Assembly: GCA_913053845.1 (NCBI GenBank)
Contig: CAJXGD010000006.1
Location: forward strand, 713-64,712
Source of the DNA: an uncultured bacterium
GTDB taxonomy: Bacteria; Bipolaricaulota; Bipolaricaulia; RBG-16-55-9; DRJF01
Direction: 5' to 3'
Length of the DNA: 64,000 bases
Under the pieces are notes generated by a model, which saw nothing but the letters and a program-made list of their open reading frames with translations, was not told the DNA's origin and did not search any database. Positions 4,373 to 63,962 of the stretch are shown piece by piece (the first letter of the stretch is position 1; the number at the start of each line of letters is the position of its first letter). Made by a program: the position numbers and the translations under genes.

Positions 4373-5890
4373 ATGGTTCAATCGCTCTCAAGACGCACCT
4401 TTCTCAAGGGTTTGGCTGTCGGAGCCACAACGCTCGCCCTACCGGGCAGCCTCTGGCAGACCGGCCTTTCCCAGCCCAGCTCGCTGCTGGCGGTGGTCAA
4501 AGCCGGACCGGACACGATGGAACCCACCAGGGATAATGACCCCAACCTGCAAGTAGTGGCCAATATCTTCGACGGCCTGCTGCGCCGCGACCCGACAGGC
4601 AAGCTGCTCCCGGCGTTGGCCACCTCATTTAAGCGCACCGACCTGGACAAATGGGAGTTTACCCTACGGCAAGGGGTCAAGTTCCACAATGGCAACCCCT
4701 TCGATGCCCAGGACGTCAAGTTCAGCCTGGAGCGGCTCAAGGGGGACTTCTCGGAGTTCCAGTCCTTCGGCGGCGCGATCAAGCAGGTCCAAATTCTGAC
4801 TCCCTTCAAGGTGCAGGTGATCACAGACGGTCCGGTACCCTTCTTCGCCAACAACCTGCACCAGATTTTCATCCTCGACCAGGAGTCCAGCGCGACCCGC
4901 TCCGAGGCGGAGATCGCGCAAAAACCCATCGGCACCGGTGCCTATCGTTTCGAGCAGTGGGTCCAGGGATCGTTTGTGGACCTGGAGGCCAACCCGGACT
5001 ACTGGGACGGCGCAGCGACGATCAAGCGTGTGCGCCATCAGGTAGTACAAGACGACTCGACCCGTCTGGCGGCCCTGGAGAGTGGGGATGCCCAACTGGT
5101 GCAGAGCCTGCCGGTGCAGTTCGCTGATCGGGTCCGCGCCAACTCGGCCTTGAAACTGGTGGTGCGTGCCGGGCGGCAGGCGATCTTCTTCTCCCCTAAG
5201 GTGGTAGACTCGCCGCTGGCCGATCTGCGCGTGCGCCAGGCGCTCTACTACGCCATTGACACTCAGGCGATCATCAAGACGGTGCTCGGCGGCTTCGGCG
5301 CGCCGGCGGCGCAGGTGCCGGACCCGCCGACGGTGGGCTTCAATCCCGACATCAAGCGTCTGTCCTTTGACCCAGCGCGGGCGCGCGGGCTGCTCAGCGA
5401 GGCCGGTTTCCCCAATGGCTTTGATCTGACCGTCGATGTCACCAATGACCAGTTCGCCAACGACGTCGAGGTTGGCCAAGCGGTGGCGCAGTTCCTCAGC
5501 CGGGTGGGCATCCATGCCCAGGTGCGGGCCCGGCCCAGCTCGCTCTTCTTCAGTGACGTTGATGCCCACAAGTTGGACTTCTTCATCGTGGGCTGGTTCG
5601 ACGGTGCCTTCGACTTTGGGCGCACGGCCAAAGTGCTTTTGGTGACGGATGCCTACTTCAACGGCTCGCTCTACAGCAACGCTCAGTTCGACGCGCTGAT
5701 CAAGCAGAGCGACGCTATCGTCAATGCCCAGGAGCGGGCCAAGCTGCTCCAGCGGGCCAACAAGCTGGTCATGGACGATGTGGCTCTGGTGCCCTTGTAT
5801 TACGAAGCTCAGGTGTGGGGCACCGCCAGCGGTCTCCAGTTCCAACCGCGCTCGGATAGCTGGACGGTCTATCACGACCTCAGCTTCTAG
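4373..5890 (+). CDS. ABC transporter substrate-binding protein, family 5 (peptide/nickel, DppA/OppA-like), Tat signal
   Basis: 505 aa; N-terminal SRRTFLKGLAVGATTLALPG twin-arginine signal; SBP_bac_5-like composition; RBS upstream. Confidence 0.8.
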   Translation: MVQSLSRRTFLKGLAVGATTLALPGSLWQTGLSQPSSLLAVVKAGPDTMEPTRDNDPNLQVVANIFDGLLRRDPTGKLLPALATSFKRTDLDKWEFTLRQGVKFHNGNPFDAQDVKFSLERLKGDFSEFQSFGGAIKQVQILTPFKVQVITDGPVPFFANNLHQIFILDQESSATRSEAEIAQKPIGTGAYRFEQWVQGSFVDLEANPDYWDGAATIKRVRHQVVQDDSTRLAALESGDAQLVQSLPVQFADRVRANSALKLVVRAGRQAIFFSPKVVDSPLADLRVRQALYYAIDTQAIIKTVLGGFGAPAAQVPDPPTVGFNPDIKRLSFDPARARGLLSEAGFPNGFDLTVDVTNDQFANDVEVGQAVAQFLSRVGIHAQVRARPSSLFFSDVDAHKLDFFIVGWFDGAFDFGRTAKVLLVTDAYFNGSLYSNAQFDALIKQSDAIVNAQERAKLLQRANKLVMDDVALVPLYYEAQVWGTASGLQFQPRSDSWTVYHDLSF

Positions 5891-5954
5891 CCGGAACCGG
5901 GTAGGGGCGAGTGCTCACTCGCCTCTACCCCTTTCTGGACAGCTAGTCCGATAG

Positions 5955-10228: not shown

Positions 10229-10305
10229 ACGCCCGTAGCTCAGCTGGATAGAGCAGCGGTTTCCTAAACCGCAGGTCGGAGGTTCGAGTCCTCTCGGGCG
10301 TACCA
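10229..10305 (+). tRNA. tRNA-Arg (anticodon CCT), CCA encoded
   Basis: Manually folded cloverleaf: acceptor ACGCCCG/CGGGCGT, D arm GCTC..GAGC, anticodon stem GCGGT/ACCGC with loop TTCCTAA (U33, CCU, A37), T arm GGAGGTTCGAGTCCTCT, 3' ACCA. Confidence 0.85.
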
Positions 10306-10349
10306 GTAGGGGCAAAGCATTCATAGCTAGAAGCGGAACGTGAATGCTT
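10306..10349. repeat. palindromic element GTAGGGGCAAAGCATTCA..TGAATGCTTCGCCCCTAC (REP-like; member of the GTAGGGGC/GCCCCTAC family)
   Basis: 18-bp inverted repeat (one mismatch) with 17-nt loop immediately 3' of tRNA-Arg and 3' of the convergent peroxiredoxin gene; the same arm sequence recurs at 41285-41356. Confidence 0.5.
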
Positions 10350-10363
10350 CGCCCCTACGTTAT

Positions 10364-28007: not shown

Positions 28008-29303
28008 ATGAGCCAGGGAGGGTGCATGAAGTTAATGAAACATACTATGAGACTGCTAAAGCTAGGGAGAAAGGCGAGCTTGACGCTGGGGCTAGGTCTG
28101 CTGGCTGTGGTGCTGGCCGGTTGTGCGGCCTTCTTCGCTCAGGCGCCGATCGCGATCATCTCGGCCACACCGACCAGCGGTGAAGCCCCTCTATTGGTCG
28201 GTTTTGACGGCTCCGGCTCCTTCGACCCCAATACCAACGGGGTGCTCACCAAATACCAATGGGATTTCGGTGATGGCAGCGCCCTGGCCCTGGGAGTGAC
28301 TCAGAGCCACTCTTATAAAGCCAATGGGACCTTCATCGCCACCCTCAAAGTGACCAATAATTTCGGGAAAGTTGGGGTTGATCTGCTGCCGCTCACCGTA
28401 GGCAAGCCGAGCATCTTCTTCAGCAGTGATCGCGGCGGGAACTACAACATCTTTCGCATGGATACCAACGGGGGCAACCAAGCTCAGGTTACCAACTACG
28501 CTTCAAGAGACGCCCTCTGGCCGGCTCTGCTGCCCAATACGCGCGACCGCCTGGCCTACTCCCACGAGGTGCAAAACCCTGATCTTACCACTCGTTTCCA
28601 GCTCTTCACCTCCCAGGTTGATGGCACCTTGCCGGCCCAACTCACGACCCAATCGAGCTCCAACAGCATTCAACCCTCCTGGTCACCCAATGGGAGCAAG
28701 ATCGCCTTCGCCTCCGACCGGGACAAGGCCAGTTGCGGCTGCTGGGGGATTTATCTCATGAACTCCGACGGCACAGGAACGGTGACCCTACGGGTGCAAT
28801 CGGGGAGCAACAACTTCGCCCCGGCCATCTCGCCCGATGGGAAGAAGATCGCCTTCGCTTCCAACAGCTCCGGCAATTATGAGATATATACCATGGATTT
28901 GGATGGCACGGGCGTGGTCAACATCACTAATAATACGCACAATGACGGTGGACCGCAGCTCACCGACTCCGACGGCCTGCCGGGCGCTCCCTCGGCGGTG
29001 CCCTTCTCCGGGCCGAGTTGGTCCCCCGATGGCACCCAGATCGCCTTCACTTCCAATCGCGACGGACCGGACCTGGACGTCTTCATCATGAACGCCGACG
29101 GCACTAACGTCATTCAACTGACCTCGAGCAGCGCGGACGATTACGATCCCTTCTGGCTACCCGGCGGCGGCGAGGTGGCCTTCGTCTCCACCCTCTCCGG
29201 CGGCTCGCCGCAGCTCTGGAAGATCAACACTACTAGCCATGCTCAGGTGCAATTGACCTCAACCGGCACCAATCTCAACGCTGCCGGTGCGAAGAATCCG
29301 TAG
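28008..29303 (+). CDS. secreted lipoprotein with a PKD domain and TolB-like beta-propeller repeats
   Basis: Lipobox VVLAGC; PKD signature (ATPTSGEAPLLVGFDGSGSFDPN..YQWDFGDGS); repeated IFFSSDRGGNYNIF / IAFASDRD / IAFASNSSGNYEIY / IAFTSNRDGPDLDVF blades. Confidence 0.65.
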   Translation: MSQGGCMKLMKHTMRLLKLGRKASLTLGLGLLAVVLAGCAAFFAQAPIAIISATPTSGEAPLLVGFDGSGSFDPNTNGVLTKYQWDFGDGSALALGVTQSHSYKANGTFIATLKVTNNFGKVGVDLLPLTVGKPSIFFSSDRGGNYNIFRMDTNGGNQAQVTNYASRDALWPALLPNTRDRLAYSHEVQNPDLTTRFQLFTSQVDGTLPAQLTTQSSSNSIQPSWSPNGSKIAFASDRDKASCGCWGIYLMNSDGTGTVTLRVQSGSNNFAPAISPDGKKIAFASNSSGNYEIYTMDLDGTGVVNITNNTHNDGGPQLTDSDGLPGAPSAVPFSGPSWSPDGTQIAFTSNRDGPDLDVFIMNADGTNVIQLTSSSADDYDPFWLPGGGEVAFVSTLSGGSPQLWKINTTSHAQVQLTSTGTNLNAAGAKNP

Positions 29304-30894
29304 ACGGGCGTGAAGGCTTATCAGGTAGGGGCACGGCATGCCGTGCCCCTACGGTCATGATCCAGAGCCCGGCCACGCCCAGCAACCCCAGCGCCAGATA
29401 GATGAACCAATCGCCGTAACGCACATAGGGTGTCAAGTCAGCCCTCAACTGCACCTGGCCGCGCAACAGAGCGGCCTGAGCGACCGCACTACGCCTCACG
29501 ATGCGCCCACGCGGGCCGACGATGGCTGAGAGGCCGGTATTGGCGGCCTGAAGAAAATAGCGATCGGTCTCAATGGCCCGGTAGACCCCGAAAGCCAAAT
29601 GCTGCGGCAAGGCCCAGCTGCGCTTGAACCAGGCATCGTTGGTGATGGTCACCAGCAGGCCGGCACCGCGGCGCACCAGCGCTCGGCCGATGCGGGGAAA
29701 GATTGACTCGAAGCAAATGTCCACCCCCAGGCGTCCCCAGGGGGCCTCCAGGGGGCGAAAGCCGGCACCGCGCTTCAGCTCACCCAATCGCCCGATGGGT
29801 AGCCAGCGAGAAAAACCCAGCCGGTTGAACAGGCCGATTCCCGGAAAGTACTCGGTGCTAAAGGGCACCAGTTGCACTTTATCGTAAGTTCCCAGCAGCG
29901 TACCCCCGGAGGAGAGCAACGCGGCGGTATTATAAAATCCTGTGGGCCTGGCATCTATCGTCCCCAGCAGCAGGGCAGTGCGCCGCTCGCGAGCGTAGCG
30001 CTCGAAGTAACCCAAGATCAGCCGGTCATGCAGCACGTAAGTAGGCAGAATAGACTCCGGCAAGATGACCAGATCGGTTGACCCTACTGGGATTCGCGCC
30101 AGCAATTTCTGATATTGCGCCAAGAAATCGCTCAAGTAGGCCCGGTCGCCCCGCAGGCGCTGGGGGATGTTCGGCTGGATCAGCGCCACCCGCAGCGCCG
30201 GCTCCTGGGACAAGGGCCGGCCGAGGCGCGCGGCTCCCCAGCCCCAGACCAGGCCCAGCACGATCAGGGCCAGCGCCGGATAGCGCCAGCGGTGCCGGCT
30301 CAAGCCCAGATAGAGCAGATAATTTATTAGCAATATCAAGAAGGAGATGATCCAGATGCCACCGAGCGCCGCGGCCTGAATCAGCGGCAGCTCCCGGTAG
30401 GTCGCTTGGGCCAGTTGGCCCCAGGTGAAGCCGAAAGGCCCCAGGGCGCGCAGGAACTCCAGTAGAGTCCAGAGGGCCGGTGCGATTAAGACCATCGCCC
30501 AAACGGGCAATCTCCGGTTAAACCAAGCATAAAAACTGCCGAAGGCACCCCAATAGAGGGCCAGATAGCCCACCAGCAGGAGATAGCCGGGGATGATCAG
30601 CAGGCCAGCCCAGTCCCAGAGGGTGTAGAGCCAGTATAGTAAGAAGGCGAAGAAGCAGGCTCCGGCGACGGCACCCAACTGAAGGCCGCGCCGCGGCCTC
30701 TGGCCCTGCAGGGCGAAGCAAAGCGGGACAAGCGCGACCCAGCTTAAGAAACCCAGCCCTGGGCCGGGCATGCTCAGCGCACCCAGCACCCCGGAGAGAC
30801 CGGCCAACAGCCAGGGCAGCACACTCATGCTGAAGGTCGCGGCTCTTCGGCCCGGTGGGGCGCTCGGCCGTGTGAGGGGGTCCTCAACGCTCAT
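29275..30894 (-). CDS. lnt: apolipoprotein N-acyltransferase
   Basis: 539 aa; N-terminal polytopic region plus C-terminal CN-hydrolase domain with catalytic E (ILPESI), K and C (VDICFESIF). Confidence 0.8.
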   Translation of the reverse strand: MSVEDPLTRPSAPPGRRAATFSMSVLPWLLAGLSGVLGALSMPGPGLGFLSWVALVPLCFALQGQRPRRGLQLGAVAGACFFAFLLYWLYTLWDWAGLLIIPGYLLLVGYLALYWGAFGSFYAWFNRRLPVWAMVLIAPALWTLLEFLRALGPFGFTWGQLAQATYRELPLIQAAALGGIWIISFLILLINYLLYLGLSRHRWRYPALALIVLGLVWGWGAARLGRPLSQEPALRVALIQPNIPQRLRGDRAYLSDFLAQYQKLLARIPVGSTDLVILPESILPTYVLHDRLILGYFERYARERRTALLLGTIDARPTGFYNTAALLSSGGTLLGTYDKVQLVPFSTEYFPGIGLFNRLGFSRWLPIGRLGELKRGAGFRPLEAPWGRLGVDICFESIFPRIGRALVRRGAGLLVTITNDAWFKRSWALPQHLAFGVYRAIETDRYFLQAANTGLSAIVGPRGRIVRRSAVAQAALLRGQVQLRADLTPYVRYGDWFIYLALGLLGVAGLWIMTVGARHAVPLPDKPSRPSTDSSHRQR

Positions 30895-37404: not shown

Positions 37405-39060
37405 TCAAAGATCGTTGGTAAACAGGGTGATCTCATCCGTGCCGAAGCCGATGACCGCCAAGTCCGGGAAACCCTCGCGGTCGAAATCTCCCAGCGCAAT
37501 GCCCGCCGGAGTGCCTCCGGCATGAAGCAGCTTGCGCCCACCGGCCAGAAATTCCCCGCTCGCATCGCCTAGCAGCACCGCCAGCGTGTCGTTGCCCCCG
37601 TTGGCCGTCACCAGGTCAAGCTGCCCATCACCGTTCAGATCGGCACTGGCCACCGCACGGACCTGTGAGCCCACCGGGATGATCACCCGCTGGTTAAAAT
37701 GGCCGCCGGGAGCACCGTGCAAGATGGTCAGATCGCCATCGGCAGAGTCGGCCACCGCCAAGTCCAGCCACCCATCGTGGTTGAAGTCGCCGGCAGCCAA
37801 CGCGGCCGGCCCACGGCCCACCGCCGTCTCCAGCGGCGCGGCAAAGTCGCCCCGACCGTCACCGATCAAGATGGCTACCGTATCGCCGAAGAAGTCGGCC
37901 ACGGCCAAATCCAGTCGCCCATCACCGTTGAAGTCGCCTGAGAGCAGCGCACTGGGCCAGCGGCCGGCCGGGGCATAGCGGGCCGGGGCGAAGCCACCTT
38001 GCCCATCTCCCAGCAGCAACCCGATGCGATTCTGCGGGGCATCGGCCACGGCCAGATCGAGATGGCCATCGTCGTTGAAGTCCCCCCAGCTCAGCGCCGA
38101 GACCGCTCCGGCCACCGGGAAATAGCGCAGTGGCTGAAAGCGCCCGGCCCCGCTGCCTAGCGCCAGGGAAATTTCTCCGGTCTCGAAGCTGCCGCTGGCC
38201 AGGTCCGGCAAACCGTCCTCATTGAAATCGGCCACTACCAGCGAAGAGGGCGCGTGGCGCACCGGGATATTGCCGATCTGGCTGAAGCGGCCATCGGGTT
38301 GCTGGATCAGCACCGAGATGTCGTTGCTGGCGATATTGGCCACTGCCAGGTCGAGTCGCCCGTCGCCGTCCAGATCGGCGCTGACCACTGCCACCGGCGA
38401 GCGACCCACCGGCTGGACCAGTTTCTCGCTGAAGCCGAGCGCCTGAATCTCCACCACGGCGCGATCGCTCAGGTCGGCCGCGCCGGTGACCGTCAGTGTG
38501 GCCCGGTAGCGCCCCCCACGGGCGTAACGGTGGCTCACTCGCATACCGTCGGCTCCACTGCCATCGCCAAACCCCCAATGATAGCCGATGATAACCCCGG
38601 CGTTGGGGCCGTCGGCCGGCCCCAGGGAACCGGAGCCGTCGAAGGTGACCGTCAGGGGCGCCCAGCCCCCGGTGGGACTGGCGATCAGCAGCGCCCGGGG
38701 CACCAGGTCTCCCACGGTGATGGTCAGCGCGGCCGCCCCGCTGCGCCCCCGATCGTCGCTGACCAGCAGGCGCACCCGATAGCGGCCCTTGCGGTTATAA
38801 CTGTGGATCACCTGGGAGCCTTGCGCTTGGCTACCATCGCCCAAACTCCATTGATAGCGCACCAGGGTTGCTCCGGCCGTGCCGCTCACCGAGGCTGAGC
38901 CGTCCAGATGCACCACCAGCGGCGGGGGCCCGCTGATCGGCGAGGCCTTGATCACCGCCAGCGGTGCCCCTGGCGGGCCCATCAGGCCACAGCCGCTCAA
39001 TACCAGCACCAGGCTGGCGCAGATGAGCATCAGTTTGAGCCAATTGGCAGCTTGTTTCAC
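37405..39060 (-). CDS. secreted lipoprotein with two PKD domains and FG-GAP/VCBS (integrin-alpha-like) repeats
   Basis: Lipobox LVLSGC; two PKD signatures (PLVVHLDGSASV..YQWSLGDGS; PLTVTFDGSGS..YHWGFGDGS); seven or more repeats of DFNxDGxLDLAVA. Confidence 0.7.
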   Translation of the reverse strand: MKQAANWLKLMLICASLVLVLSGCGLMGPPGAPLAVIKASPISGPPPLVVHLDGSASVSGTAGATLVRYQWSLGDGSQAQGSQVIHSYNRKGRYRVRLLVSDDRGRSGAAALTITVGDLVPRALLIASPTGGWAPLTVTFDGSGSLGPADGPNAGVIIGYHWGFGDGSGADGMRVSHRYARGGRYRATLTVTGAADLSDRAVVEIQALGFSEKLVQPVGRSPVAVVSADLDGDGRLDLAVANIASNDISVLIQQPDGRFSQIGNIPVRHAPSSLVVADFNEDGLPDLASGSFETGEISLALGSGAGRFQPLRYFPVAGAVSALSWGDFNDDGHLDLAVADAPQNRIGLLLGDGQGGFAPARYAPAGRWPSALLSGDFNGDGRLDLAVADFFGDTVAILIGDGRGDFAAPLETAVGRGPAALAAGDFNHDGWLDLAVADSADGDLTILHGAPGGHFNQRVIIPVGSQVRAVASADLNGDGQLDLVTANGGNDTLAVLLGDASGEFLAGGRKLLHAGGTPAGIALGDFDREGFPDLAVIGFGTDEITLFTNDL

Positions 39061-39128
39061 CGCTCACTCCCCGTGACTCGATTATGCCTATGATAATGAT
39101 TGATCGTCCCGGTGGCAATTCAACCCTC

Positions 39129-41339
39129 TCAGCGCCTGACTGCCAGCTTCTGCACCCCGCTGCTGACCGTCTGCCCCTGGGCGGTGTCAACCGTGACCAG
39201 ATAGAGATAGACCCCCGTGGCCACCGGGGCGCCCAGCCGATCCTGCTCTGACCAGACCAGCGCTCGCCTGATCGTGGCGCTGAAGCTGAAGACCACCCGC
39301 CCGGCCAGGTCGAATACCTGCAAGTGCCAGCCCCTCCCAGCCGCGCCGGGGGCCATAAGCGCCGACCAGAGATATCCTGAGGCCCGGCGCTGCGGTCTGA
39401 GCGCGGCCAGCTCGGCCCGCAGGGTTCGGCCCTGGCCGACCACTATCAGGCTGTCCCCCTCGACCGGCCGGCCATTGATCGTGCCCTTTAAGCGGTAGCG
39501 TCCTGGCTTGATCTCCGAGGAGAGCACCAGCGCGTAACGCAGCCAGATCGTCCGGCCCGGCGCGGCGGCCGGCCAACTCCAGGCCGAGCTTCCGGGGTCA
39601 AACTCTCCCCCGCCATTGTCCAGCGGCACGATGCGAAAACCCGCAGGCGGCTTCTCCTGCAGTCGCAGGCCGCCGAAGCGCCCCAGTGGCATTTGCAAAT
39701 TGATCGAGACGACCAGTCGCTCGCCAGGTCGGACAGCGGAGCCCGTATGCTGAACGTGACGTGCGGCGCTGGGCCAACCTAGGATCAAGTCTAGCTCGCC
39801 GGCCCCATAGGTGACGTCGGGACCGGGCGGGCCCAGATCGGTGGCGTCCCCGCGCAGAGCGGCCTTCAGTTGGGCGGTGCTCCAGCCGGGATGCTGCGAG
39901 AGCAGCAGTGCGGCCGCTCCGGCCACGTGCGGCGCGGCCGCCGAGGTCCCCAAGAAACCGCCGAATCTATTAGAGAAGAAAAGATTGTCTACCCCATCGG
40001 GTCCGACTAAATCCGGCTTGATGCGCCCATCGAAGGTGGGCCCCAGGGCGCTGAAGCTCTCCTGAGGGCCGCTGGACCAGCGCTCGCGATTGACCGCTCC
40101 CACGGCCAGCGTGCAGCTGCAGTCGGCCGGAGCGACGAGGCTGCCGTGGGGTATGGGCTTCTCAAAATATGCTCCCGACTCGATCTGAAAGAGCCGCAGC
40201 CACATCGGCCGCGTGGCCCAGTGGGCGCGGACCCGCACGAAATAGACACCGGGATGGTCAGCCACATATTGCAGCTCCTCGCGTGGTGGCTGGGTCCCCG
40301 TCTGGCGATTCTGAGAGCTGGCCAGCACCTTGCCACGGGCATCGGTGAGATAGAGATCGTAATCCTGATCGGTCGTCGGCCAGTCGTTCCAGACCAGCAC
40401 CAGGTCAATCAGGCCGCCAAGCGGCACTTTCAGCGCTAGCGACTGCTTCCCCAGGGCGAACTCGGCCCAACCGTCGTGGTTGCTGTCGCGGAAGCGGCCT
40501 ATCCAGTGCGCCTGTGCTTGATTGCCCGCCGCGTTGACCCAAAGGATCCCCGCGGCACGAGCTCGACGCGCTATCTCATTGATCAAACCCGTCCCGTCGT
40601 CGAAATCGGTATCGAACCAACCGAGCGAGCAATTGATCACCCGAACACCTAGCCGAATCGCATCATCCACGGCGTTCTCTAAGTCAACCTCATCGCCGAT
40701 CTTCATCAGATATAGCTGAGCACGCGGGGCCATCTCATGGACGATCTCGGCCACGGCGCTGCCATGCTCGCCGCCGGTCAGCAGTCCTTTGCCGGTATAG
40801 TCTTTTTTGAAGACGATCGCGCCGGCCGCCAGCACCCGGTGCTTCACCGCCCAGTAGAGCCCGGAGAAGCCGGCATCTATGATGGCTACCTTGACCCCTT
40901 GACCTTGGAAACCCTGGCTCTGGAAGAGCAGGCCACCGGTGGGCAGCAGCCCTTGGCTGAGCTGCAACTGACCCAGCGGCGCCCAGCGGTAGGGCCGACG
41001 GATATATCTGATGCCGGGGACACGGGTGGCGATCTCATTCAAGCGATCCAGCGGCAGGCGGGCGCGCAGCAGGTCGGATGAGCGCGCCTCGATCTGGGCG
41101 CCCAACTCTCGCAAGGCCGCTTGATCTATCGCGCCGCTCGCGCCTCCCAGGGGTTCGATGATCGCCGTGACAGAAGCACCCGGCCGGCTTGTGGCAGCCA
41201 GCCGGGCCAGCGAGCTCTCCAATTTGCCGCTCGGCGGAGGAGGGCCGGCTAAAGCGATGAAGGAGAGCGCAGCAAAGAGCAGCAGTAGGGGCGAAGCATT
41301 CGCAAGCCAAGAACGGCGTATCTTCTTGAATGCTTGCAC
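39129..41339 (-). CDS. subtilisin-like serine peptidase (S8) with T9SS-type C-terminal sorting-domain-like tail
   Basis: 736 aa; catalytic D (VAIIDAGF), H (HGSAVAEIV), S (GTSAAAPHVAGAAALL); C-terminal ~80 aa LQVFDLAGRVV..GVYLYLVTV..GQTVSSGVQKLAVRR shared with the three downstream paralogs; GTG start. Confidence 0.8.
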   Translation of the reverse strand: MQAFKKIRRSWLANASPLLLLFAALSFIALAGPPPPSGKLESSLARLAATSRPGASVTAIIEPLGGASGAIDQAALRELGAQIEARSSDLLRARLPLDRLNEIATRVPGIRYIRRPYRWAPLGQLQLSQGLLPTGGLLFQSQGFQGQGVKVAIIDAGFSGLYWAVKHRVLAAGAIVFKKDYTGKGLLTGGEHGSAVAEIVHEMAPRAQLYLMKIGDEVDLENAVDDAIRLGVRVINCSLGWFDTDFDDGTGLINEIARRARAAGILWVNAAGNQAQAHWIGRFRDSNHDGWAEFALGKQSLALKVPLGGLIDLVLVWNDWPTTDQDYDLYLTDARGKVLASSQNRQTGTQPPREELQYVADHPGVYFVRVRAHWATRPMWLRLFQIESGAYFEKPIPHGSLVAPADCSCTLAVGAVNRERWSSGPQESFSALGPTFDGRIKPDLVGPDGVDNLFFSNRFGGFLGTSAAAPHVAGAAALLLSQHPGWSTAQLKAALRGDATDLGPPGPDVTYGAGELDLILGWPSAARHVQHTGSAVRPGERLVVSINLQMPLGRFGGLRLQEKPPAGFRIVPLDNGGGEFDPGSSAWSWPAAAPGRTIWLRYALVLSSEIKPGRYRLKGTINGRPVEGDSLIVVGQGRTLRAELAALRPQRRASGYLWSALMAPGAAGRGWHLQVFDLAGRVVFSFSATIRRALVWSEQDRLGAPVATGVYLYLVTVDTAQGQTVSSGVQKLAVRR

Positions 41340-41356
41340 GAATGCTTCGCCCCTAC
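41285..41356. repeat. perfect 19-bp inverted repeat (AGTAGGGGCGAAGCATTCG / CGAATGCTTCGCCCCTACT) spanning the S8 gene start
   Basis: Arms at 41285-41303 (inside the signal-peptide codons) and 41338-41356 (start codon, RBS region and 3' end of the upstream gene), with a ~34-nt loop; same arm sequence as the element at 10306-10349. Confidence 0.5.
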
Positions 41357-41358
41357 TC

Positions 41359-43113
41359 TTATCTGAGGACGACCAGCTTTTTGACCCGACTGCTGAAGCT
41401 CTGTCCGTCCGCGCCCCGGACCGTCACGATATAGAGATAAACCCCGTTGGCCAGCGGCCGACCGGAGCGATCCAGCGGCCGGAAACGCAACCGGTTGCCG
41501 CTCCCTTGTAGGTCTGCGAGGGGACGGCCGTTCAGGCTGAAGAGCTGTAGCCTGACGTCGGCGATCCCCGCTCCTCGGACCTGCAATTCCGCCCGGCCAC
41601 CTGACAGCGAGCGCAGGCCGATGGAGCTTATCGCTAGAGGTGCCGCTGCCGCTGTGGGCTCTCTCATCATGCTCTGGCTGACTCCCAGGAAGCGGAGCAG
41701 GTCGCCCCAGAGGCCACCTACTGCCAGACTGGGCGGGCCGGGGGGCAGAAGCGAATTGTCCCAGCGGTTACGGTCCAGACCGGCGCTGAATAGCTTGCAA
41801 CTACCGGCCACTTTGACCCAGTAGCCCTTAAAATCATTGAGCGGCTCGCTGGGATCAATCGGCGCGTACTTGCTGCCATCGTACCACCAGGGCCCCGATT
41901 GCAGTTGACAGCCGCGAAAGATCGAGCCAATACGATTCCAGCTCTTGGAGGAGGAGATCAGATTCCAACCCTGATGCAACTCCAGATCCTGACGGACATT
42001 GGTGCCGGTCGCCTGCAGGGTGCAGGCGTTATCCACCTTGAGCCAATAACCCTTGGCCGGCTCCAGCTTGTTGGCCTGGATATAGCGGCTGCCGGTCCAC
42101 TCCCAAGGGCCGCTGGCGAACTGACAGGTGCCCTTCAGATCAGCCGGTGCAATGGTGCCCACCGGTGAGGAGATCATGTTCCAGCCGGCGTCGAGCCGCA
42201 AGATCAAGCCGGAGATCGGCACTGGAGGAGGCGGCGGCGCACCGGAGGTGGGCGGGCCGGACTCGCTGATGATGCTAAAACTGTCGGTGAGTGGGCGGTC
42301 ACTCAGGAAATTCGAGCCACAGTTGATCGGGATATCCCGTTGGCAAGGGCCGTTCTCTTTCAAAGGCGTATCGTCGGCCACCGCCAGCCGCAGCGAGACG
42401 TTAATCCGGCCGGCTGGAGCGTTGGAGCCGATGTCCACAGTGAAGTAGAGCAGCAGCGGCGTCGTCTCGCCACCCAGGCCGGCGGCGTAGACCGGCTGTA
42501 GGTTTTGGCTGGTCATGATCCAATCTTGCTGGCGCCCGAAGCGGGCGACGGCCTGCCCATTGCTGTTGGTAAATTGAACCGGCACCCGGGCTATCAGCTC
42601 GTTGGCCTGGAAGAGGATGCCATCTCCACCTCCACTAAAAGGAGGGAGAGGGAAGCCATCGGTGTAGACACGCAAAGTCTTGAGTGCCTTGGCGCCCGGT
42701 CCGCTAAAGGTGATCACCCCGCCCTTGATGCCGGTGGCCAGGCCATCGGCTCCGCCGGTCTTGGCCGGCTTGGGCGTGCAGCCTAAGATCGCCAAGCCGC
42801 CGGAGATGGCCATCGGCGTGCCCGGCAGAGAAGGGACGATCTTAGCGGTAGTATTATTCAGCACTCCGCCGTCACAGATGCCCACCACAATGGCCAGCGC
42901 CTCATCGGTGCCCGGGTTGATCTGTCGCGCTTGATCCCGTGTCAGCAGGTTGGTCAGGTGAATCACCTGGATGTCGCTCTCCGCTAGGCCGCTGCCGGCC
43001 AGATAGCCTGGTAAAGGCGCCGCTGAGGCCCTCCCGCCGCCGGTCCCAAATCCCACCAGCAGCAGGACGGACGACAGCAGCGCCACCAGAACAGTCCGCA
43101 TGCTATACTTCAT
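41359..43113 (-). CDS. secreted repeat protein, paralog 1 (shared N-terminal domain, 2 Trp/Cys-rich modules, T9SS-type CTD-like tail)
   Basis: 584 aa; signal peptide; N-terminal domain ~65% similar to paralog 2; two modules of the form GWNMISSPV..C..GPWEW.G..Y..A..LEPAKGYWLKV..C; CTD ..GVYLYIVTVRGADGQSFSSRVKKLVVLR. Confidence 0.6.
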   Translation of the reverse strand: MKYSMRTVLVALLSSVLLLVGFGTGGGRASAAPLPGYLAGSGLAESDIQVIHLTNLLTRDQARQINPGTDEALAIVVGICDGGVLNNTTAKIVPSLPGTPMAISGGLAILGCTPKPAKTGGADGLATGIKGGVITFSGPGAKALKTLRVYTDGFPLPPFSGGGDGILFQANELIARVPVQFTNSNGQAVARFGRQQDWIMTSQNLQPVYAAGLGGETTPLLLYFTVDIGSNAPAGRINVSLRLAVADDTPLKENGPCQRDIPINCGSNFLSDRPLTDSFSIISESGPPTSGAPPPPPVPISGLILRLDAGWNMISSPVGTIAPADLKGTCQFASGPWEWTGSRYIQANKLEPAKGYWLKVDNACTLQATGTNVRQDLELHQGWNLISSSKSWNRIGSIFRGCQLQSGPWWYDGSKYAPIDPSEPLNDFKGYWVKVAGSCKLFSAGLDRNRWDNSLLPPGPPSLAVGGLWGDLLRFLGVSQSMMREPTAAAAPLAISSIGLRSLSGGRAELQVRGAGIADVRLQLFSLNGRPLADLQGSGNRLRFRPLDRSGRPLANGVYLYIVTVRGADGQSFSSRVKKLVVLR

Positions 43114-43199
43114 GTTGACCTCCCCTTGGATTCATGTTGAGGGATAAATGCCTCGCAGCTTCTTTATACCTCAACCGGATAAGGGGAGGCACGACGGTC

Positions 43200-45425
43200 C
43201 TAACGTAATAGTAGGAGTTTCCGCACCTCGCTGCTGGTCGCCTGTCCGTCCGCGCCCTTGACCGTCACGATATAGAGATAGACCCCGTTGGCCAAGGGTC
43301 GCCCCTGCCGGCCGAGGGTGGCCAGATGCAACCGGTTGCCTCTCCCGCGCGCCTGGGCGACCAACGTGCCGGCCAGATCATAGAGGCGCAGCTCACTGTG
43401 CCCGATGCCTCTGCCAAGCACCTGCAGCTCAAGGCCTGACCCTACCTGACTGAGCCGAACGCCTTCCAGACGCAAGGGCACAGCCTGCTGTGCTATAGAG
43501 CTGAATTCAGAGGCCGGTGCTGCGCCCTTGCCGGACAGTCCTTGGCTGTTCACGTTGCAGCCCTGGCTCACCTTGGCCCAGTAGCCCTTAAAGCCGTTTA
43601 GCGGCGTGCCAGGGGCGATCTGCTTATACTGCTTGCCATTCCACCACCAGGGACCGGAGAGCAGCGTGCAGCCGCCGGTATTGAGCTGGTTCCAGCTCCC
43701 GGAAGATGAGATCAGATTCCAGCCGGGGCTCAGGGCCAGGCTCTGGGGAAAGCTCCCTGACGAAGGTGGAGTTTGCAGGGTGCAAGGCACTCCAACCTTG
43801 ACCCAATAGCCCTTAGCCGACTCCAGGGTAGATGCTTGCTCGTAACGGGTTCCGGTCCACCACCAGGGGCCGCTGCTGAAGAGACAGTCGCCCTGCACTG
43901 CCGAGAGGGGCACCGAGCGGATCGGAGAGGAGATCATGTTCCAGCCGACATGTAATTTGAGCGTGGGGCTCAAGCCGCCGGGAGGGGCGGGGGGTTGCGA
44001 TTGTAGGGGCGAAGCATTTTCAACTGGCAGCCGGGGTATGGGGTTGAGCTCAGGGACCCATGCTGCGCCCTTATCTTGCCCCTGCGCGCTCTGGCTGCTG
44101 ACGCTGCAACCGGCCCCGACCTTGACCCAATAGCCCTTGAAATCCTCCATGGAGGTGCCGGAAGCCACCTGCTGGTACCGGGTGCCGTCGTACCACCAGG
44201 GACCGGAGAGCAGCGTGCAGCCACCGGTATTAAGCTGGTTCCAACTCCCAGATGACGAGATCAAATTCCAGCCGCCGACCAAGCTTAGACTCTGCGGGGC
44301 GTTGCTGCCTGAGGCCTGCATGGTGCAAGCTCCGGCCACTTGGACCCAATAGCCCTTGGCCGGCTCGATGGTGCCCGCCTGCTGGTAGCTGGAGCCGCTC
44401 CACCACCAGGGGCCACCGGTGACGCTGCAGTTGCCTTGCAGCGAGCTGAGCGGCACCGAGCCCACCGGCGAGGAGATCATGTTCCAGCCGGCGTGCAGAC
44501 TCAATGAGAGCCCTCCGCCTGGCGGCGCCGGCGGCGGGGTTCCGCCACCTGGAGCGGCCCCGCCGACGATCTCGAAGCTGTTCATCTCCGGGCCGCTCTT
44601 CATGAAGTTCGAGCCACAGTTGATTCCTAACAACAGGAACCGAGCACAGATGCCGCCGGCTCCTTGCGCGGTATCATCGCCGGCGCCAACTCCCAAGGCG
44701 ACGTTGACACGGCCGCTGGTGGCATCTTGCCCGATGTCCACGGTGAAGTAAAGTAACTCCGGTCGCGTCTGACCGTTTACCCCAAATGCAACGACGGGTG
44801 CGCCGTTGCGGGCGGAGAGGATCTGCTCTTGAGTGCGACCGAACTGGGCGATCGCCTCGCCGGTGCCCGTATTGAACCGGGCGGTCACCTGTTGGATCAG
44901 CTCCGCCGGCTCAAAGAGCCGCCCATTGCCGCCGCCCTTGTAGGGACCTACCGGTGGCAGGACCGGGGCATCCACATACATACGCACGGTGCGAATGAAC
45001 CTGGCTCCCGGTCCGCTGAAGACGAGAATCGCGCTGTTGACTCCGGTGGCTAGCCCGTCCGAGCCACCTGTCAAGGCGCCTCCTGAGGGTATGCAGGGAA
45101 TGGCTGCCAGGCCGCCGGCGATGGTCGCGGTGGCTCCGGCGACCGGCACCAGCAGGGTGGCGCTGGTGTTGGCCAGTACGCCCCCGTCGCAGATGCCGAC
45201 CATGATGGCCAGCACCCCGCTGGTGCCAGGTGTGATCTGGGTACCGCGATTTCGGGTGAGCAGTCCGGAGATATGAATCGTCTGAATGTCGGACTCGGCG
45301 TTGCCGCTGCCGTTGGAGAGATTCGGAATGGGTGAGGCCCCGGCAGTTGCAGCCGGACCGAATGAGGTAATGATTAGTGCCAATACTACGAAGGCTAAGC
45401 TGAACGCCTTGAGTTTGAGATTCAT
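43200..45425 (-). CDS. secreted repeat protein, paralog 2 (4 Trp/Cys-rich modules, T9SS-type CTD-like tail)
   Basis: 741 aa; signal peptide; the same N-terminal domain as paralog 1; four modules (two near-identical pairs separated by Pro/Gly linkers); CTD ..GVYLYIVTVKGADGQATSSEVRKLLLLR. Confidence 0.6.
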   Translation of the reverse strand: MNLKLKAFSLAFVVLALIITSFGPAATAGASPIPNLSNGSGNAESDIQTIHISGLLTRNRGTQITPGTSGVLAIMVGICDGGVLANTSATLLVPVAGATATIAGGLAAIPCIPSGGALTGGSDGLATGVNSAILVFSGPGARFIRTVRMYVDAPVLPPVGPYKGGGNGRLFEPAELIQQVTARFNTGTGEAIAQFGRTQEQILSARNGAPVVAFGVNGQTRPELLYFTVDIGQDATSGRVNVALGVGAGDDTAQGAGGICARFLLLGINCGSNFMKSGPEMNSFEIVGGAAPGGGTPPPAPPGGGLSLSLHAGWNMISSPVGSVPLSSLQGNCSVTGGPWWWSGSSYQQAGTIEPAKGYWVQVAGACTMQASGSNAPQSLSLVGGWNLISSSGSWNQLNTGGCTLLSGPWWYDGTRYQQVASGTSMEDFKGYWVKVGAGCSVSSQSAQGQDKGAAWVPELNPIPRLPVENASPLQSQPPAPPGGLSPTLKLHVGWNMISSPIRSVPLSAVQGDCLFSSGPWWWTGTRYEQASTLESAKGYWVKVGVPCTLQTPPSSGSFPQSLALSPGWNLISSSGSWNQLNTGGCTLLSGPWWWNGKQYKQIAPGTPLNGFKGYWAKVSQGCNVNSQGLSGKGAAPASEFSSIAQQAVPLRLEGVRLSQVGSGLELQVLGRGIGHSELRLYDLAGTLVAQARGRGNRLHLATLGRQGRPLANGVYLYIVTVKGADGQATSSEVRKLLLLR

Positions 45426-45448
45426 CTATGTTCCCCCTTGATTATACG

Positions 45449-45565
45449 CCGGGGATTGAAATCCCCGGCTACGGTGAGGCATAAAACCCCTACGGGGTTC
45501 CAGGTCGTGAACCCTCGTGAGAGGGTTTCCCTGACGTCACGTAGCCGGGAAATTCATTTCCCGGT
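45449..45565. repeat. structured intergenic element, copy A (four hairpins plus a closing long-range helix)
   Basis: Hairpins CCGGGGA-TTGAAA-TCCCCGG, CCCC-TA-GGGG, AACCCTC-GTGA-GAGGGTT, CCGGGAAA-TTCA-TTTCCCGG; CCGGCTACG pairs with the distal CGTAGCCGG; ~80% identical to copy B at 61361-61474 with compensatory changes. Confidence 0.45.
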
Positions 45566-45568
45566 CTC

Positions 45569-47197
45569 CTATCGCAGCACGACCAGCTTCTTGACCTCAC
45601 TGGTGATCATTTGTCCGTCCGCGCTCTTGACAGTCACGATGTAGAGATAGACACCATTGGCCAGCGGTCGTCCCTCGCGACTCAAAGCCATCAGGCGCAG
45701 CCGGTTCCCTGTCCCTTGGGCCTGCACGATCAACCGGCCGGCCAGAGTGTAGAGACGCAGCTCGGTGCTCTCGATGGCGCTGCCAGCCACTTGCAAGCGG
45801 ATGCTGGAACCCTGAGCGCTCAAGCGCACGCTTTGCAATTGCAAGGGTGCGGCGCCGGCTGAGGGAGGCCTGGGGAACCCTCCAAATGCAGGGGGCATGC
45901 CGTTACTCCTCTCCTGAACCACCGCCGACTGGCTGCTCACGGTACAACCGCCGCCCACTTTCGCCCAATAACCCTTGAAGCCCTCCATCGGCGTGGCAGG
46001 AGGCACCTGCTGATACCGCGTGCCATCGTACCACCAGGGGCCGGAGAGCAAGGTGCAGCCTCCAGTGTTCATCTGGTTCCAGCTCCCGGATGAAGATATC
46101 AGGTTCCAGCCGCTCACCAAGCTCAGGCTCTGCGGAGATGAGCTGCCGCCCGCCTGCATGGTGCAAGGGCTACCCACTTTGACCCAGTAGCCTTTGGCCG
46201 GCTCCAATACAGAAGCCAACTGATAGGCGGTACCATTCCACTCCCAGGGGCCGCCGCTGAAGGAGCAGTTGCCCTGCAGTGAAGAGATAGGTGAGGAGCT
46301 GACCGGGGTGGAGATCATGTTCCAACCGGCGTGCAAGCTCAGTGAGAGTCCACCTGCGCCCGGCGGAGGTGGCGGAGCCCCGCCACCCGATCCACCACCA
46401 GGCGCGGTTCCACCGATGATGTGCAGCGTGATATTACTCCCTTGCGGATTGGCCGAGGCGCCGAAGCTGTCGCTCACCCGCGCCCCGCCTACCGGTCCGC
46501 CTCCGGCCAGCGCTCCGGGGATGTCGCCGGCCACCGCTTCCAGTTGTAGGGCAAAGTCCGAGCCGCTCACCGGGTTGGGTCCAATCTTGACCACGGCCAA
46601 CAGCGAGACGGCACAGAAGTTAGCCCCTGCCACCCCCACCGTCCTGCACAATGTTCCTCCTCCCACCGAAGTGAGCGTAAAGACTGGACTGGCCCCACCG
46701 TTGGAGAAGAGCGCCTTGCCGGCGTCCAAATCGGCACCGGTGTAGGTTCTGCCCACCGGCAGGTCAATGCCGGGGTCGAAGCGTCCGTTGAAGTTGCTGT
46801 CCTGATAGATGGTCATCTCTTGGATATCGGCATCGCGGGCGTTGGTAATGGTCGTGGTGATCAGCGCGCCCATCACGTTGAGCGGCCACATACTCCCTGG
46901 GGTACAGTTGCCTGATGCCACGACGCCGGTGTGGGCCACGTAGTCATTGGCCAGCACCCAGGCGCCGGCCACCGCCGTGCTATTGGGACTGACGGTGAGC
47001 GAAGAGGGTATGCCGGTGGTGGTGAACTGATCGGTGGCCAGCACTGCGCCGGTGGGACAGCCGCTGGCGGGGACGAGCCCCGGCAAGCTGAGGTAGGCCG
47101 AGCCGTTCACCCCCAACAGGAAGGTCGCCAGCAGTCCAACCAGCAAAGCAGCCATCGGCCATCTCAGTCGGGAACGGTCTATCATCTTGAGCCTCAT
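45569..47197 (-). CDS. secreted repeat protein, paralog 3 (distinct N-terminal domain, 2 Trp/Cys-rich modules, T9SS-type CTD-like tail)
   Basis: Start set at MRLKMIDRSRLRWPMAALLVGLL (signal peptide; the ORF track extends to 47290); different N-terminal domain but the same module pair and CTD ..GVYLYIVTVKSADGQMITSEVKKLVVLR. Confidence 0.6.
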   Translation of the reverse strand: MRLKMIDRSRLRWPMAALLVGLLATFLLGVNGSAYLSLPGLVPASGCPTGAVLATDQFTTTGIPSSLTVSPNSTAVAGAWVLANDYVAHTGVVASGNCTPGSMWPLNVMGALITTTITNARDADIQEMTIYQDSNFNGRFDPGIDLPVGRTYTGADLDAGKALFSNGGASPVFTLTSVGGGTLCRTVGVAGANFCAVSLLAVVKIGPNPVSGSDFALQLEAVAGDIPGALAGGGPVGGARVSDSFGASANPQGSNITLHIIGGTAPGGGSGGGAPPPPPGAGGLSLSLHAGWNMISTPVSSSPISSLQGNCSFSGGPWEWNGTAYQLASVLEPAKGYWVKVGSPCTMQAGGSSSPQSLSLVSGWNLISSSGSWNQMNTGGCTLLSGPWWYDGTRYQQVPPATPMEGFKGYWAKVGGGCTVSSQSAVVQERSNGMPPAFGGFPRPPSAGAAPLQLQSVRLSAQGSSIRLQVAGSAIESTELRLYTLAGRLIVQAQGTGNRLRLMALSREGRPLANGVYLYIVTVKSADGQMITSEVKKLVVLR

Positions 47198-47319
47198 ATC
47201 TGCCTCCTTTGCGTAGAGTTGATGATCACGAGATTCGGCATGGAGCATTCTAGCAGAGAGATGGGGAGAGGACCAAATAGCTAAAATCAAGAGCAGAGGC
47301 TACCTATGCGGTGCCCCGC

Positions 47320-58338: not shown

Positions 58339-58461
58339 GTCTCTACCTCCTGTTTTCTGATTCTTCTAATATACCAGAAGAATCTATGCTTGTCAAACCC
58401 AAAGGAGTTGGCACGCCAAGAGATCGTTACCAGGGGGAGACTGTAGGGGCGTATGGCCATA

Positions 58462-58685
58462 CCACTGGTCACAACTTAAGGCATTAAATGGTGATTTCAA
58501 GGCGTTTTCCCCACAGCTCCTTCTCCCTCAGGGAGAAGGTTGGGATGAGGGTGTGCAAGCCGTTTGCTTCACCCAACAGGACCAACCCTCACCCCGACCC
58601 TCTCCCAAACATGGGAGAGGGAGCAAGCACACGCCGCTAAAATGATGTTCCCAACGGGATAAACACCCTTAAGTTGTGACCAGTG
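58462..58685. repeat. MITE-like element: ~185-bp structured core bounded by 19-20-bp terminal inverted repeats (CCACTGGTCACAACTTAAGG .. CCTTAAGTTGTGACCAGTG)
   Basis: Terminal inverted repeats at 58462-58481 and 58667-58685; internal hairpins CCCTCAGGGAGAAGG and CCCTCTCCCAAACATGGGAGAGGG; no coding capacity. Confidence 0.4.
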
Positions 58686-61147: not shown

Positions 61148-61232
61148 AGCAGGATGCCTCCTTTGCTCTTCTGCGTGATGCTATACCGATGTACATTGAT
61201 CATATCGCATGTTTTTTGTAGGGGCAACCCCC

Positions 61233-61303
61233 CGTGGTTGCCCTGAATCCTGGGCGAGCGCCCTGGGCAGGCACAGGGGCCTGCCCCTACAAATTGGGTT
61301 CAC
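61233..61303. repeat. composite palindromic element bounded by GTAGGGGC .. GCCCCTAC with internal hairpins
   Basis: GGGCAACC-CCCCGT-GGTTGCCC and GGCAGG..CCTGCC hairpins; GCCCTGAATCCTGGGC occurs twice within 100 bp; related copies at 63880-63962 show compensatory changes (CAGCC/GGCTG vs CAACC/GGTTG). Confidence 0.4.
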
Positions 61304-61360: not shown

Positions 61361-61474
61361 CCGGGGATTAAAATCCCCGGCTACGGTAAGGCAGAAAACC
61401 CCTACGGGGTTCCGGCCGTTAACCCTCAAAGAGGGTTTCCCAGCTTTTCGGTAGCCGGGAGATTTATCTCCCGG
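61361..61474. repeat. structured intergenic element, copy B (same four-hairpin architecture as 45449-45565)
   Basis: CCGGGGA-TTAAAA-TCCCCGG, CCCC-TA-GGGG, AACCCTC-AAA-GAGGGTT, CCGGGAGAT-TTA-TCTCCCGG; the fourth stem differs from copy A by compensatory pairs (GAAA/TTTC vs GAGAT/ATCTC). Confidence 0.45.
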
Positions 61475-63879: not shown

Positions 63880-63962
63880 CAGGGCGACCACGTAGGGTCG
63901 CCCCTACATTGTTTACGGTGGTTGTGTTTTTCTGTAGGGGCAGCCCTATGTGGCTGCCCTGC
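63880..63962. repeat. palindromic elements of the GTAGGGGC/GCCCCTAC family upstream of the SLH gene
   Basis: GGGCGACC-ACGTAG-GGTCGCCC followed by CCCTACA, then TGTAGGGGCAGCC-CTATGT-GGCTGCCCTG; co-varies with the 61233-61262 copy. Confidence 0.35.

Follow-up and report, generated by a model that had tools for sequence, protein, structure and literature searches.

A probable double-foot long REP copy at the start of a subtilisin-family protease gene in an uncultured Bipolaricaulota bacterium

In a 64,000-nt stretch of contig CAJXGD010000006.1 (assembly GCA_913053845.1, positions 713 to 64,712 of the forward strand; the window hereafter), which comes from an uncultured bacterium of the Bipolaricaulota, the open reading frame (ORF) of an S8 (subtilisin-family) protease of 736 aa (39129..41339, minus strand) begins inside a long palindrome at 41285-41356. 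This locus raises the question of why a start codon should be built into such a structure. The original prediction suggested that the palindrome could be a translational gate, a thermosensor-like element or an RNase III site of the protease, or else the terminator of the upstream gene. Comparison with other genomes leads to a different answer. To judge from its sequence, the element is most probably a copy of a 'double-foot long REP' (REP, repetitive extragenic palindrome), of the type associated with the RayT/TnpA_REP transposases (RayT, REP-associated tyrosine transposase) of HUH-Y1 subclass 2.4, also known as RAYT group 4. It is read here as a passenger rather than a purpose-built regulator of the protease.

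The inverted repeat and its family in other genomes

A repeat search of the window recovered two arms of 19 nt, at 41284-41302 (AGTAGGGGCGAAGCATTCG) and 41339-41357 (CGAATGCTTCGCCCCTACT), which are 100% complementary and spaced by 36 nt. The perfect 19-bp repeat had been described with the correct sequences and in the right place, with coordinates that were off by one base. It is the sole perfect inverted repeat of at least 18 nt within 150 nt across the 64-kb window, and about 3e-5 such perfect repeats are expected by chance according to our own estimate (64000 x 150 x 4^-19). In the mRNA sense (minus strand), the last base of the 5' arm (AGTAGGGGCGAAGCATTCG, 41339..41357) is the G of the GTG start codon, and the 3' arm (CGAATGCTTCGCCCCTACT, 41284..41302) supplies the codons A-N-A-S-P-L-L of the annotated N-terminus, as had been proposed. 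The interior (41303..41338, minus strand) encodes QAFKKIRRSWL and is itself self-complementary, with GCAAGC/GCUUGC and CAAGAA/UUCUUG pairs flanking a 9-nt loop, so that the entire 72-nt unit is predicted to fold as a single long hairpin. Read from 41356 down to 41285, its mRNA-sense sequence is GTAGGGGCGAAGCATTC-GTG-CAAGCATTCAAGAAGATACGCCGTTCTTGGCTTG-CGAATGCTTCGCCCCTAC.

The predicted RNA fold of the element has a minimum free energy of -53.4 kcal/mol, a centroid of -48.4 and a z of -6.4 versus shuffled controls, while either strand reaches about -31 kcal/mol as single-stranded DNA (ssDNA; z -8.6 to -9.8). On their own, the arms form an internal mini-hairpin of 4-5 bp at most (GCGAA-GCA-TTCGC). 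The idea that the stem sequesters the start codon is correct insofar as the stem embeds the only available start, but just the first G of the GTG lies within the 19-nt arm, and the TG forms a 2-nt internal loop separating the outer from the inner helix. The motif AAGCATTC occurs twice, 5 nt apart, at the arm end and in the interior (41322-41345, mRNA sense GAAGCATTCGTGCAAGCATTCAAG), which suggests a small slippage duplication inside this copy.

The ends of the element are as characteristic as its fold. The 72-nt unit consists of GTAG plus GGGCGAAGCATTCG, the 36-nt interior, and CGAATGCTTCGCCC plus CTAC. Both strands therefore read 5'-GTAG and then the hairpin, and the tetranucleotide stands immediately 5' of the stem on either strand, at 41285 and 41356. 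Three G-C pairs close the bottom of the stem (GTAG-GGGC...GCCC-CTAC), which is the arrangement called 'double foot'. REPs are considered to be ssDNA hairpins with a GTAG guide tetranucleotide at their foot, which RayT would recognise, cut and rejoin; this mechanism of recognition, cutting and rejoining is established for E. coli TnpA_REP, and it would be the way in which the elements spread and hold on in intergenic DNA. By the same paradigm, the action of a RayT on the single-stranded hairpin would have placed the 41285-41356 copy and would keep it there.

The arm is widespread beyond the window. The 16-mer GTAGGGGCGAAGCATT was scanned against one genome per species, and the matches listed, to which the counts in this paragraph refer, comprise at least 120 loci (L001-L120) in roughly nine phyla; the window's own genome was not included among the loci fetched for comparison. 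The hosts are Cyanobacteria, Chloroflexi, Brocadia (Planctomycetes), Armatimonadetes, Calditrichia, Latescibacterota, Deltaproteobacteria, Acidobacteria (Thermoanaerobaculia) and one Lachnospiraceae metagenome-assembled genome (MAG). An inverted partner was present for 136 of the 148 arms, and the resulting unit mostly measures 69-75 nt (72 nt in the window). The terminal inverted repeats are conserved over 16-22 nt and the unit size is small and uniform, while the interior of 30-36 nt is lineage-specific, with no conservation between lineages, and is common to copies within Brocadia and within one Elainellales MAG; L002 and L054 share theirs. Complementarity ends at the GTAG/CTAC feet in 102 of 117 family members, and most elements (84/121) lie outside any stop-to-stop ORF of at least 150 aa. 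Direct repeats of 2-8 nt flanking 117 elements, which would mark a target-site duplication, were at chance level, and an all-against-all BLAST of the ORFs from these loci returned no recurrently linked gene.

The identity of a 16-nt arm across roughly nine phyla points to the inter-phylum spread of one REP-RayT system or to a very strong RayT-recognition constraint. The dispersed GTAGGGGC...GCCCCTAC palindrome family that the original prediction had postulated is accordingly far larger than supposed, with at least 120 loci in other genomes. A metagenome scan for the interior of the window copy (GCATTCAAGAAGATNCNCCGTTCTTGGC) gave 0 matches, and therefore there is no evidence that this interior has been copied elsewhere. 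In addition, Rfam at gathering thresholds reported four tRNAs only in the 64-kb window and no family for the element. A literature search found two 13-mers in no paper, and the 8-mer matches to GTAGGGGC and GCCCCTAC were unrelated eukaryotic primers. Similarly, the arm GGGGCGAAGCATT is absent from the searchable text of PMC6006769 and PMC5581495, and the family sequence from the supplements of PMC3733652.

The link to a transposase was found by a motif scan alone and not by linked-gene BLAST. When the fetched loci were scanned for HuH...YIxxNP, one ORF was recovered, at 6463-7026 in a Chloroflexi MAG (L021). It scores 31.8 bits against Pfam Y1_Tnp (PF01797; cut-off 23), and its best NCBIfam match is 'REP-associated tyrosine transposase' (E 3.8e-19, 69 bits); a phmmer search against PDB sequences gave no match at E <= 0.01. 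The gene carries a 69-nt in-frame copy of the element (6734-6802) between HuH and Y, and a second copy (7029-7097) follows 3 nt past its stop. More than 5000 homologs exist, many of which have been named 'REP element-mobilizing transposase RayT' by JGI, and among the best 120 of the homologs (P0121-P0240), 48 contain both arm-encoded peptides (GEAF/GEAL/GAKH ... NASP), 20-22 residues apart. The RayT P0155 (locus L134), encoded on a 5.37-Mb Armatimonadetes chromosome, has a 72-nt in-frame copy (3305-3376) and another copy 115 nt upstream, and this chromosome harbours dispersed copies as well (L011, L013, L069, L079). In both L021 and L134, the RayT gene contains a copy of its own substrate.

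These features correspond to what has been described for subclass 2.4 of TnpA_REP (RAYT group 4): its REPs are long, close the base of the stem with three G-C pairs, take 'double foot' forms of the type GT[AG]G...C[TC]AC and are found inserted in-frame within tnpA_REP (Quentin et al. 2018, PMC6006769), and the subclass ranges over Cyanobacteria plus scattered phyla (PMC6006769; Bertels et al. 2017, PMC5581495). The window element is alike in the GTAG at the foot, the three bottom G-C pairs and the 3' CTAC, and its family in the element copies in-frame within RayT genes (HuH-Y) and adjoining them, and in a host range of Cyanobacteria, Chloroflexi and scattered phyla. It differs in that no RayT was found in the window, Bipolaricaulota (Acetothermia) are not named in those surveys, the interior is long (~36 nt) and the unit is held tightly to 69-75 nt.

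The protease junction and its history

The protease gene, whose homologs carry PF00082, follows a co-directional gene for a secreted protein of 584 aa with no Pfam family (41359..43113, minus strand), a paralog of the gene at 43200..45425. The TAA stop of this upstream gene (...VVLR-TAA, 41359..41361, minus strand) lies 2 nt ahead of the hairpin foot, and the GTG of the protease begins at 41339, which bears out the 19-nt intergenic gap reported before. The GTG (41337..41339, minus strand) is the sole canonical in-frame start ahead of the hydrophobic core of the signal peptide (LLLLFAALSFIALA); the next in-frame ATG, GTG or TTG is a TTG at codon 40, past this core. Residues 1-18 (MQAFKKIRRSWLANASPL), which include the basic n-region of the signal peptide, are encoded by the REP. 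There is no canonical Shine-Dalgarno (SD) site before the GTG and the REP foot provides an SD-like AGGGG 10 nt before it, whereas the GGGGAG(G) Shine-Dalgarno sites of other genes in the cluster stand 6-7 nt from the start. A promoter and terminator scan around the element (40900-41800) detected nothing promoter-like or terminator-like, and the sequence after the stem, GCUGCUCUUUGC, has no U-tract.

Translation from the GTG is favoured, because no alternative start codon gives a signal peptide. It is true that exact excision of 41285-41356 would recreate 'TAA G ATG CTG CTC...' with an in-frame ATG, but this is judged probably coincidental; a post-excision ATG start is disfavoured, as the signal peptide would have 13 residues without an n-region, and the relatives have either a REP or a longer N-terminus.

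The closest relative at this junction (L121, 96% protein identity) has the 72-nt element as in the window, with 68 of 72 nt identical, while the protease gene is 96.2% identical and a ~5.9-kb aligned segment 94.8%. Three of the four substitutions fall in the interior, where one breaks an inner pair without compensation, and the fourth lies in the 3' arm and results in a U.G wobble in the mRNA sense. In the first 18 codons, all four codon changes between the window and L121 are non-synonymous, as compared to 27 of the 74 changes in the remaining codons (one-sided Fisher test, p = 0.022). Because of this excess, the REP-encoded N-terminal stretch appears to be under little protein-level constraint, which fits either a tolerant n-region or non-translation.

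At 63-66% protein identity, four loci (L122, L128, L125 and L126) have a shorter, 27-nt double-foot REP, GTAGGGGCGT-N7-ACGCCCCTAC, which is located within the N-terminal coding region in L122 and L128 (M-x-IARVGA..LRPY) and 8-24 nt upstream of the start in L125 and L126. At ~50% identity, the junction is a plain 5-40 nt with no GTAG hairpin (L129, L131 and L132). No pair of a filled and an empty site was found among these relatives. Since the orthologs at ~50% lack a hairpin at the junction, the protease does not require one in general. A REP has occupied the junction in one clade, and the long type holds the site in the window lineage, where it may have arisen by replacement, expansion or independent insertion. 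Among the protease homologs, Bipolaricaulota (Acetothermia) names occur only on matches at 43-49% identity, which would point to a relative of this group tentatively.

The junction belongs to a minus-strand cluster (37405-47290) with three or four secreted proteins without a Pfam family. The products of 43200..45425 and 41359..43113 have N-terminal modules and a C-terminal ...NGVYLYIVTV...KKLVVLR tail in common. After the secreted-protein genes come the S8 protease, with a like tail, and then a PKD/FG-GAP protein, and the synteny of the protease-PKD/FG-GAP pair is kept down to ~50% identity.

Further GTAG palindromes in the window and known repeat systems

Within the window, 5 matches to the 18-mer arm at up to 3 mismatches compare with 0.08 expected, and 13 occurrences of GTAGGGGC with 2.06 expected; none of 100 shuffles attained 13. 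Hairpins in which GTAG precedes an 8-bp stem number 22, versus 8.1 +/- 2.9 in simulations. They belong to several sub-families and can be sorted into four groups, namely double-foot palindromes, inverted dimers of short hairpins, a second GTAG family and a single arm. About ten GTAG-hairpin loci can be distinguished, mostly at gene ends, and double-foot GTAGGGGC...GCCCCTAC palindromes are located at 5901-5928, 10306-10358, 29325-29352 and 41285-41356.

The 53-nt double-foot REP at 10306..10358 has arms of the 41285 type with 1-2 mismatches (18 nt, 94% complementary) and a different 17-nt interior. A hairpin with the same arms had been predicted here after tRNA-Arg, although its span is 10306-10358 and not 10306-10349. 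Within the stretch 10229-10358, it begins on the base right after the encoded CCA end of tRNA-Arg(CCT), and T-rich sequence follows it; this REP may serve as a terminator or processing hairpin of the tRNA transcript. As the interiors of the 41285 and 10306 copies differ, whole-unit copying is not shown in the window.

The double-foot REP at 5901..5928 (28 nt, one mismatch) lies 11 nt past the stop of the gene 4373..5890. A perfect one of 28 nt (GTAGGGGCACGGCATGCCGTGCCCCTAC, 29325..29352) is read through by the 3' end of an lnt-like ORF (29275..30894, minus strand), and in the Lnt-like protein it comes right after the final transmembrane helix, as the residues VGARHAVPL. Beyond the REP, the ORF continues for ~16 codons, with a 29-nt overlap with the convergent gene 28008..29303, and its annotated C-terminus has probably been lengthened by the REP. 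A single arm, GTAGGGGCGAAGCATTTT (44003..44020, plus strand), is found inside the 741-aa gene 43200..45425 (minus strand), where it encodes ENASPLQ, a linker between two repeated modules of the secreted protein; L121 keeps this arm with one substitution.

Other repeats belong to different types. The copies that had been noted at 61233 and 63880 do exist, with repeats spanning 61218-61290 and 63880-63961, but they are of a different sub-type, namely pairs of short GTAG hairpins: an inverted dimer of short REPs (GTAG-GGGCnnCC-N6-GGnnGCCC) with the GTAG ends outside at 61218..61290, and one of the same type with the GTAG ends inside at 63882..63959. An inverted dimer of a second REP family, GTAG-CCGGGGATTTnAATCCCCGG, occupies the next intergenic junction of the protease cluster (45449..45564), and a second inverted dimer of this GTAG-CCGGGG family is located at 61361..61474. 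Furthermore, GTAGGGGCGTATGGCCATAC at 58443-58462 resembles a decayed copy of the 27-nt REP type GTAGGGGCGTATGnnCTACGCCCCTAC from the L125/L126 protease junction.

The repeats of the window are also comparable to the GTAG REP super-family of Di Nocera, De Gregorio and Rocco (2013), which comprises 24 families that lie just past ORFs, between co-directional genes or overlapping ORF N-termini (PMC3733652). Both have a tag plus a stem-loop, several families per genome, head-head and tail-tail dimers, a post-ORF location, overlaps with ORF ends and in-frame insertions in genes. However, the stems of the super-family measure 6-13 bp and its loops mostly 2-15 nt (PMC3733652), whereas the window element has an outer stem of 18-19 bp and a 36-nt interior.

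With the REPINs (paired REPs) and BIMEs (bacterial interspersed mosaic elements) of Pseudomonas and E. coli, which go with RAYT groups 2 and 3, the element shares inverted GTAG halves, one long predicted hairpin, non-autonomy and, probably, dependence on RayT. The shared interiors of the Brocadia and Elainellales MAG units are likewise as expected from whole-unit copying. In contrast, each half of a REPIN is a REP hairpin while the window arms have a mini-hairpin of 4-5 bp at most, and the two same-arm window copies are without a common interior. Rickettsia palindromic elements (RPEs) and intragenic REPs resemble the present case in that a palindrome is read in-frame, here as 18 predicted N-terminal residues, and elsewhere as ENASPLQ (741-aa protein), VGARHAVPL (C-terminus of Lnt) and VGA..LRPY (orthologous proteases); RPEs differ in being unrelated in sequence and in having no known RayT.

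What the hairpin may do at the start of the protease gene

Several other explanations have to be weighed against the REP assignment. A dedicated cis-regulatory RNA of the protease, evolved for the operon as a translational gate, RNA thermometer or RNase III site, would account for an SD-like sequence and start codon within the stem, for a GTAG palindrome at the same junction in the 63-66% relatives and for the arm substitution in L121 that keeps pairing as U.G in the mRNA sense. However, it is very unlikely: the same arms occur at the 120 or more loci with unrelated neighbours in roughly nine phyla, after a tRNA and inside RayT genes, the ~50%-identity orthologs have a plain junction, and L121 has lost an inner-stem pair with no compensating change. 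Because the arms have unrelated neighbours across many phyla and a tie to RayT genes, the proposal of a protease-specific device is rejected. RNA thermometers of the ROSE or fourU type mask the SD or the start by pairing that is weak and imperfect enough to melt at 37-42 C. A perfect 18-19-bp helix, in an element of about -48 to -53 kcal/mol, would not be expected to melt physiologically, which makes the proposed thermosensor-like element implausible. Equally, the conserved terminal inverted repeats of 16-22 nt, the variable interior and the small uniform size could suggest a miniature inverted-repeat transposable element (MITE) moved by a DDE transposase, but this is extremely improbable: no target-site duplication of 2-8 nt rises above chance for the 117 elements among the matches listed, neither a DDE transposase nor any other gene is recurrently linked at the 120 or more loci, the linked gene, where found, is a HUH-Y1 RayT, and a length of 72 nt is near the bottom of the 70-300 bp range given for bacterial MITEs (PMC3733652).

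Two further explanations concern the genes on either side. The element could be an inert passenger, with the N-terminus not translated as annotated and the protease either starting elsewhere or decaying; the non-synonymous changes in the first 18 codons, the missing canonical Shine-Dalgarno site and the view that many REPs in annotated N-termini are probably extragenic (PMC3733652) would agree with this. It is nevertheless unlikely, in that no other in-frame start precedes the hydrophobic core, the 736-aa ORF is otherwise intact and conserved, with 96% amino-acid identity and mostly synonymous changes, and in the orthologs L122 and L128, too, translation has to begin upstream of the REP. That the hairpin acts mainly on the upstream gene, by terminating or attenuating transcription, by stabilising the 3' end against exonucleases or by slowing the release of ribosomes at the stop codon, is a possibility to be kept in mind, if a minor one. 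GTAG REPs typically lie <20 bp past ORF ends, between co-directional or convergent genes (PMC3733652). In the window, the foot is 2 nt from the TAA, and the copies at 5901, 10306 (behind the tRNA) and 63882 lie past gene ends as well. REPs of E. coli stabilise the mRNA upstream of them, and Liang, Rudd and Deutscher (2015) reportedly found that REPs within ~15 nt of a stop codon lower the expression of the gene before it. The stem is not followed by a U-tract, though, and the terminator scan was empty, so the suggested terminator of the upstream gene finds no support; moreover, the scan showed no promoter-like site belonging to the protease gene, which overlaps the element, so its expression needs read-through. 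A role for the upstream gene is compatible with a REP and not exclusive of it. In summary, the regulatory readings are not supported as the reason for the element's existence.

Some observations weigh against a REP of the subclass 2.4 type that is a mere passenger. The window holds just 2.5 copies of the exact 41285 arm type, with different interiors, and the RayT scores in NCBIfam (69 and 62.5 bits) fall below the curated cut-off of 80. No RayT-like ORF (HuH...Y(I/V)xxNP) was found in the 64-kb window or in the relatives' fragments, which is expected if the RayT gene is single-copy; a HUH-like string at 17855 was rejected owing to its non-ORF context. In addition, the single arm substitution in L121 keeps pairing as U.G and is compatible with RNA-level constraint, albeit as one event only, and the GTAG double-foot palindrome at the same junction in four orthologous loci (63-66%) could mean that the hairpin is selected.

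Even as a passenger, the REP copy would have consequences for expression of the protease. In a polycistronic mRNA, a predicted hairpin of about -50 kcal/mol would lock up the SD-like site together with the GTG and the first 18 codons. Such a helix would block independent initiation by free ribosomes, and ribosomes that terminate at the TAA would have melted about half of the 5' arm and could re-initiate 19 nt downstream. Translational coupling in which the upstream terminating ribosome unfolds an initiation-site hairpin is known from RNA phages and operons. The present junction is alike in that the stop lies 2 nt before a helix masking the downstream initiation region and the start 19 nt past the stop, and differs in that the helix comes from a mobile repeat and is predicted to be much stronger than is typical. 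Coupling to the upstream ORF would be the likeliest effect on translation, and that the protease is made mainly in this way would seem to have an even chance of being correct. In addition, the hairpin may delay ribosomes that terminate on the upstream ORF or shield the upstream 3' end, as for E. coli REPs.

A more tentative proposal, and a rather doubtful one, is that the REP has been co-opted as a working 5' end that provides the SD-like site, the GTG and the n-region, with the protease synthesised only when the upstream paralog is translated, and with the junction GTAG palindrome (of the shorter type in the 63-66% relatives) kept by selection. If this is true, the persistence of a GTAG palindrome of a shorter and different type at the junction in these relatives would reflect selection for the arrangement.

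To conclude, REPs with a RayT are known, and what is new here is a member in a poorly studied lineage, with the local twist of a REP that would supply a start codon and n-region. Gene-start hairpins of this kind in uncultured lineages should be read first as REP copies and not as riboregulators, and care is needed with ORF starts and ends that cross REPs, for instance at the N-terminus of the protease, the C-terminus of Lnt and the linker ENASPLQ. That the 16-nt arm is exactly conserved across roughly nine phyla and has a copy inside the RayT gene may be relevant to REP-RAYT co-evolution and transfer. The junction itself offers a compact natural case of a probably RayT-dependent repeat overlapping a start codon, which may be usable for studying REP-imposed translational coupling.

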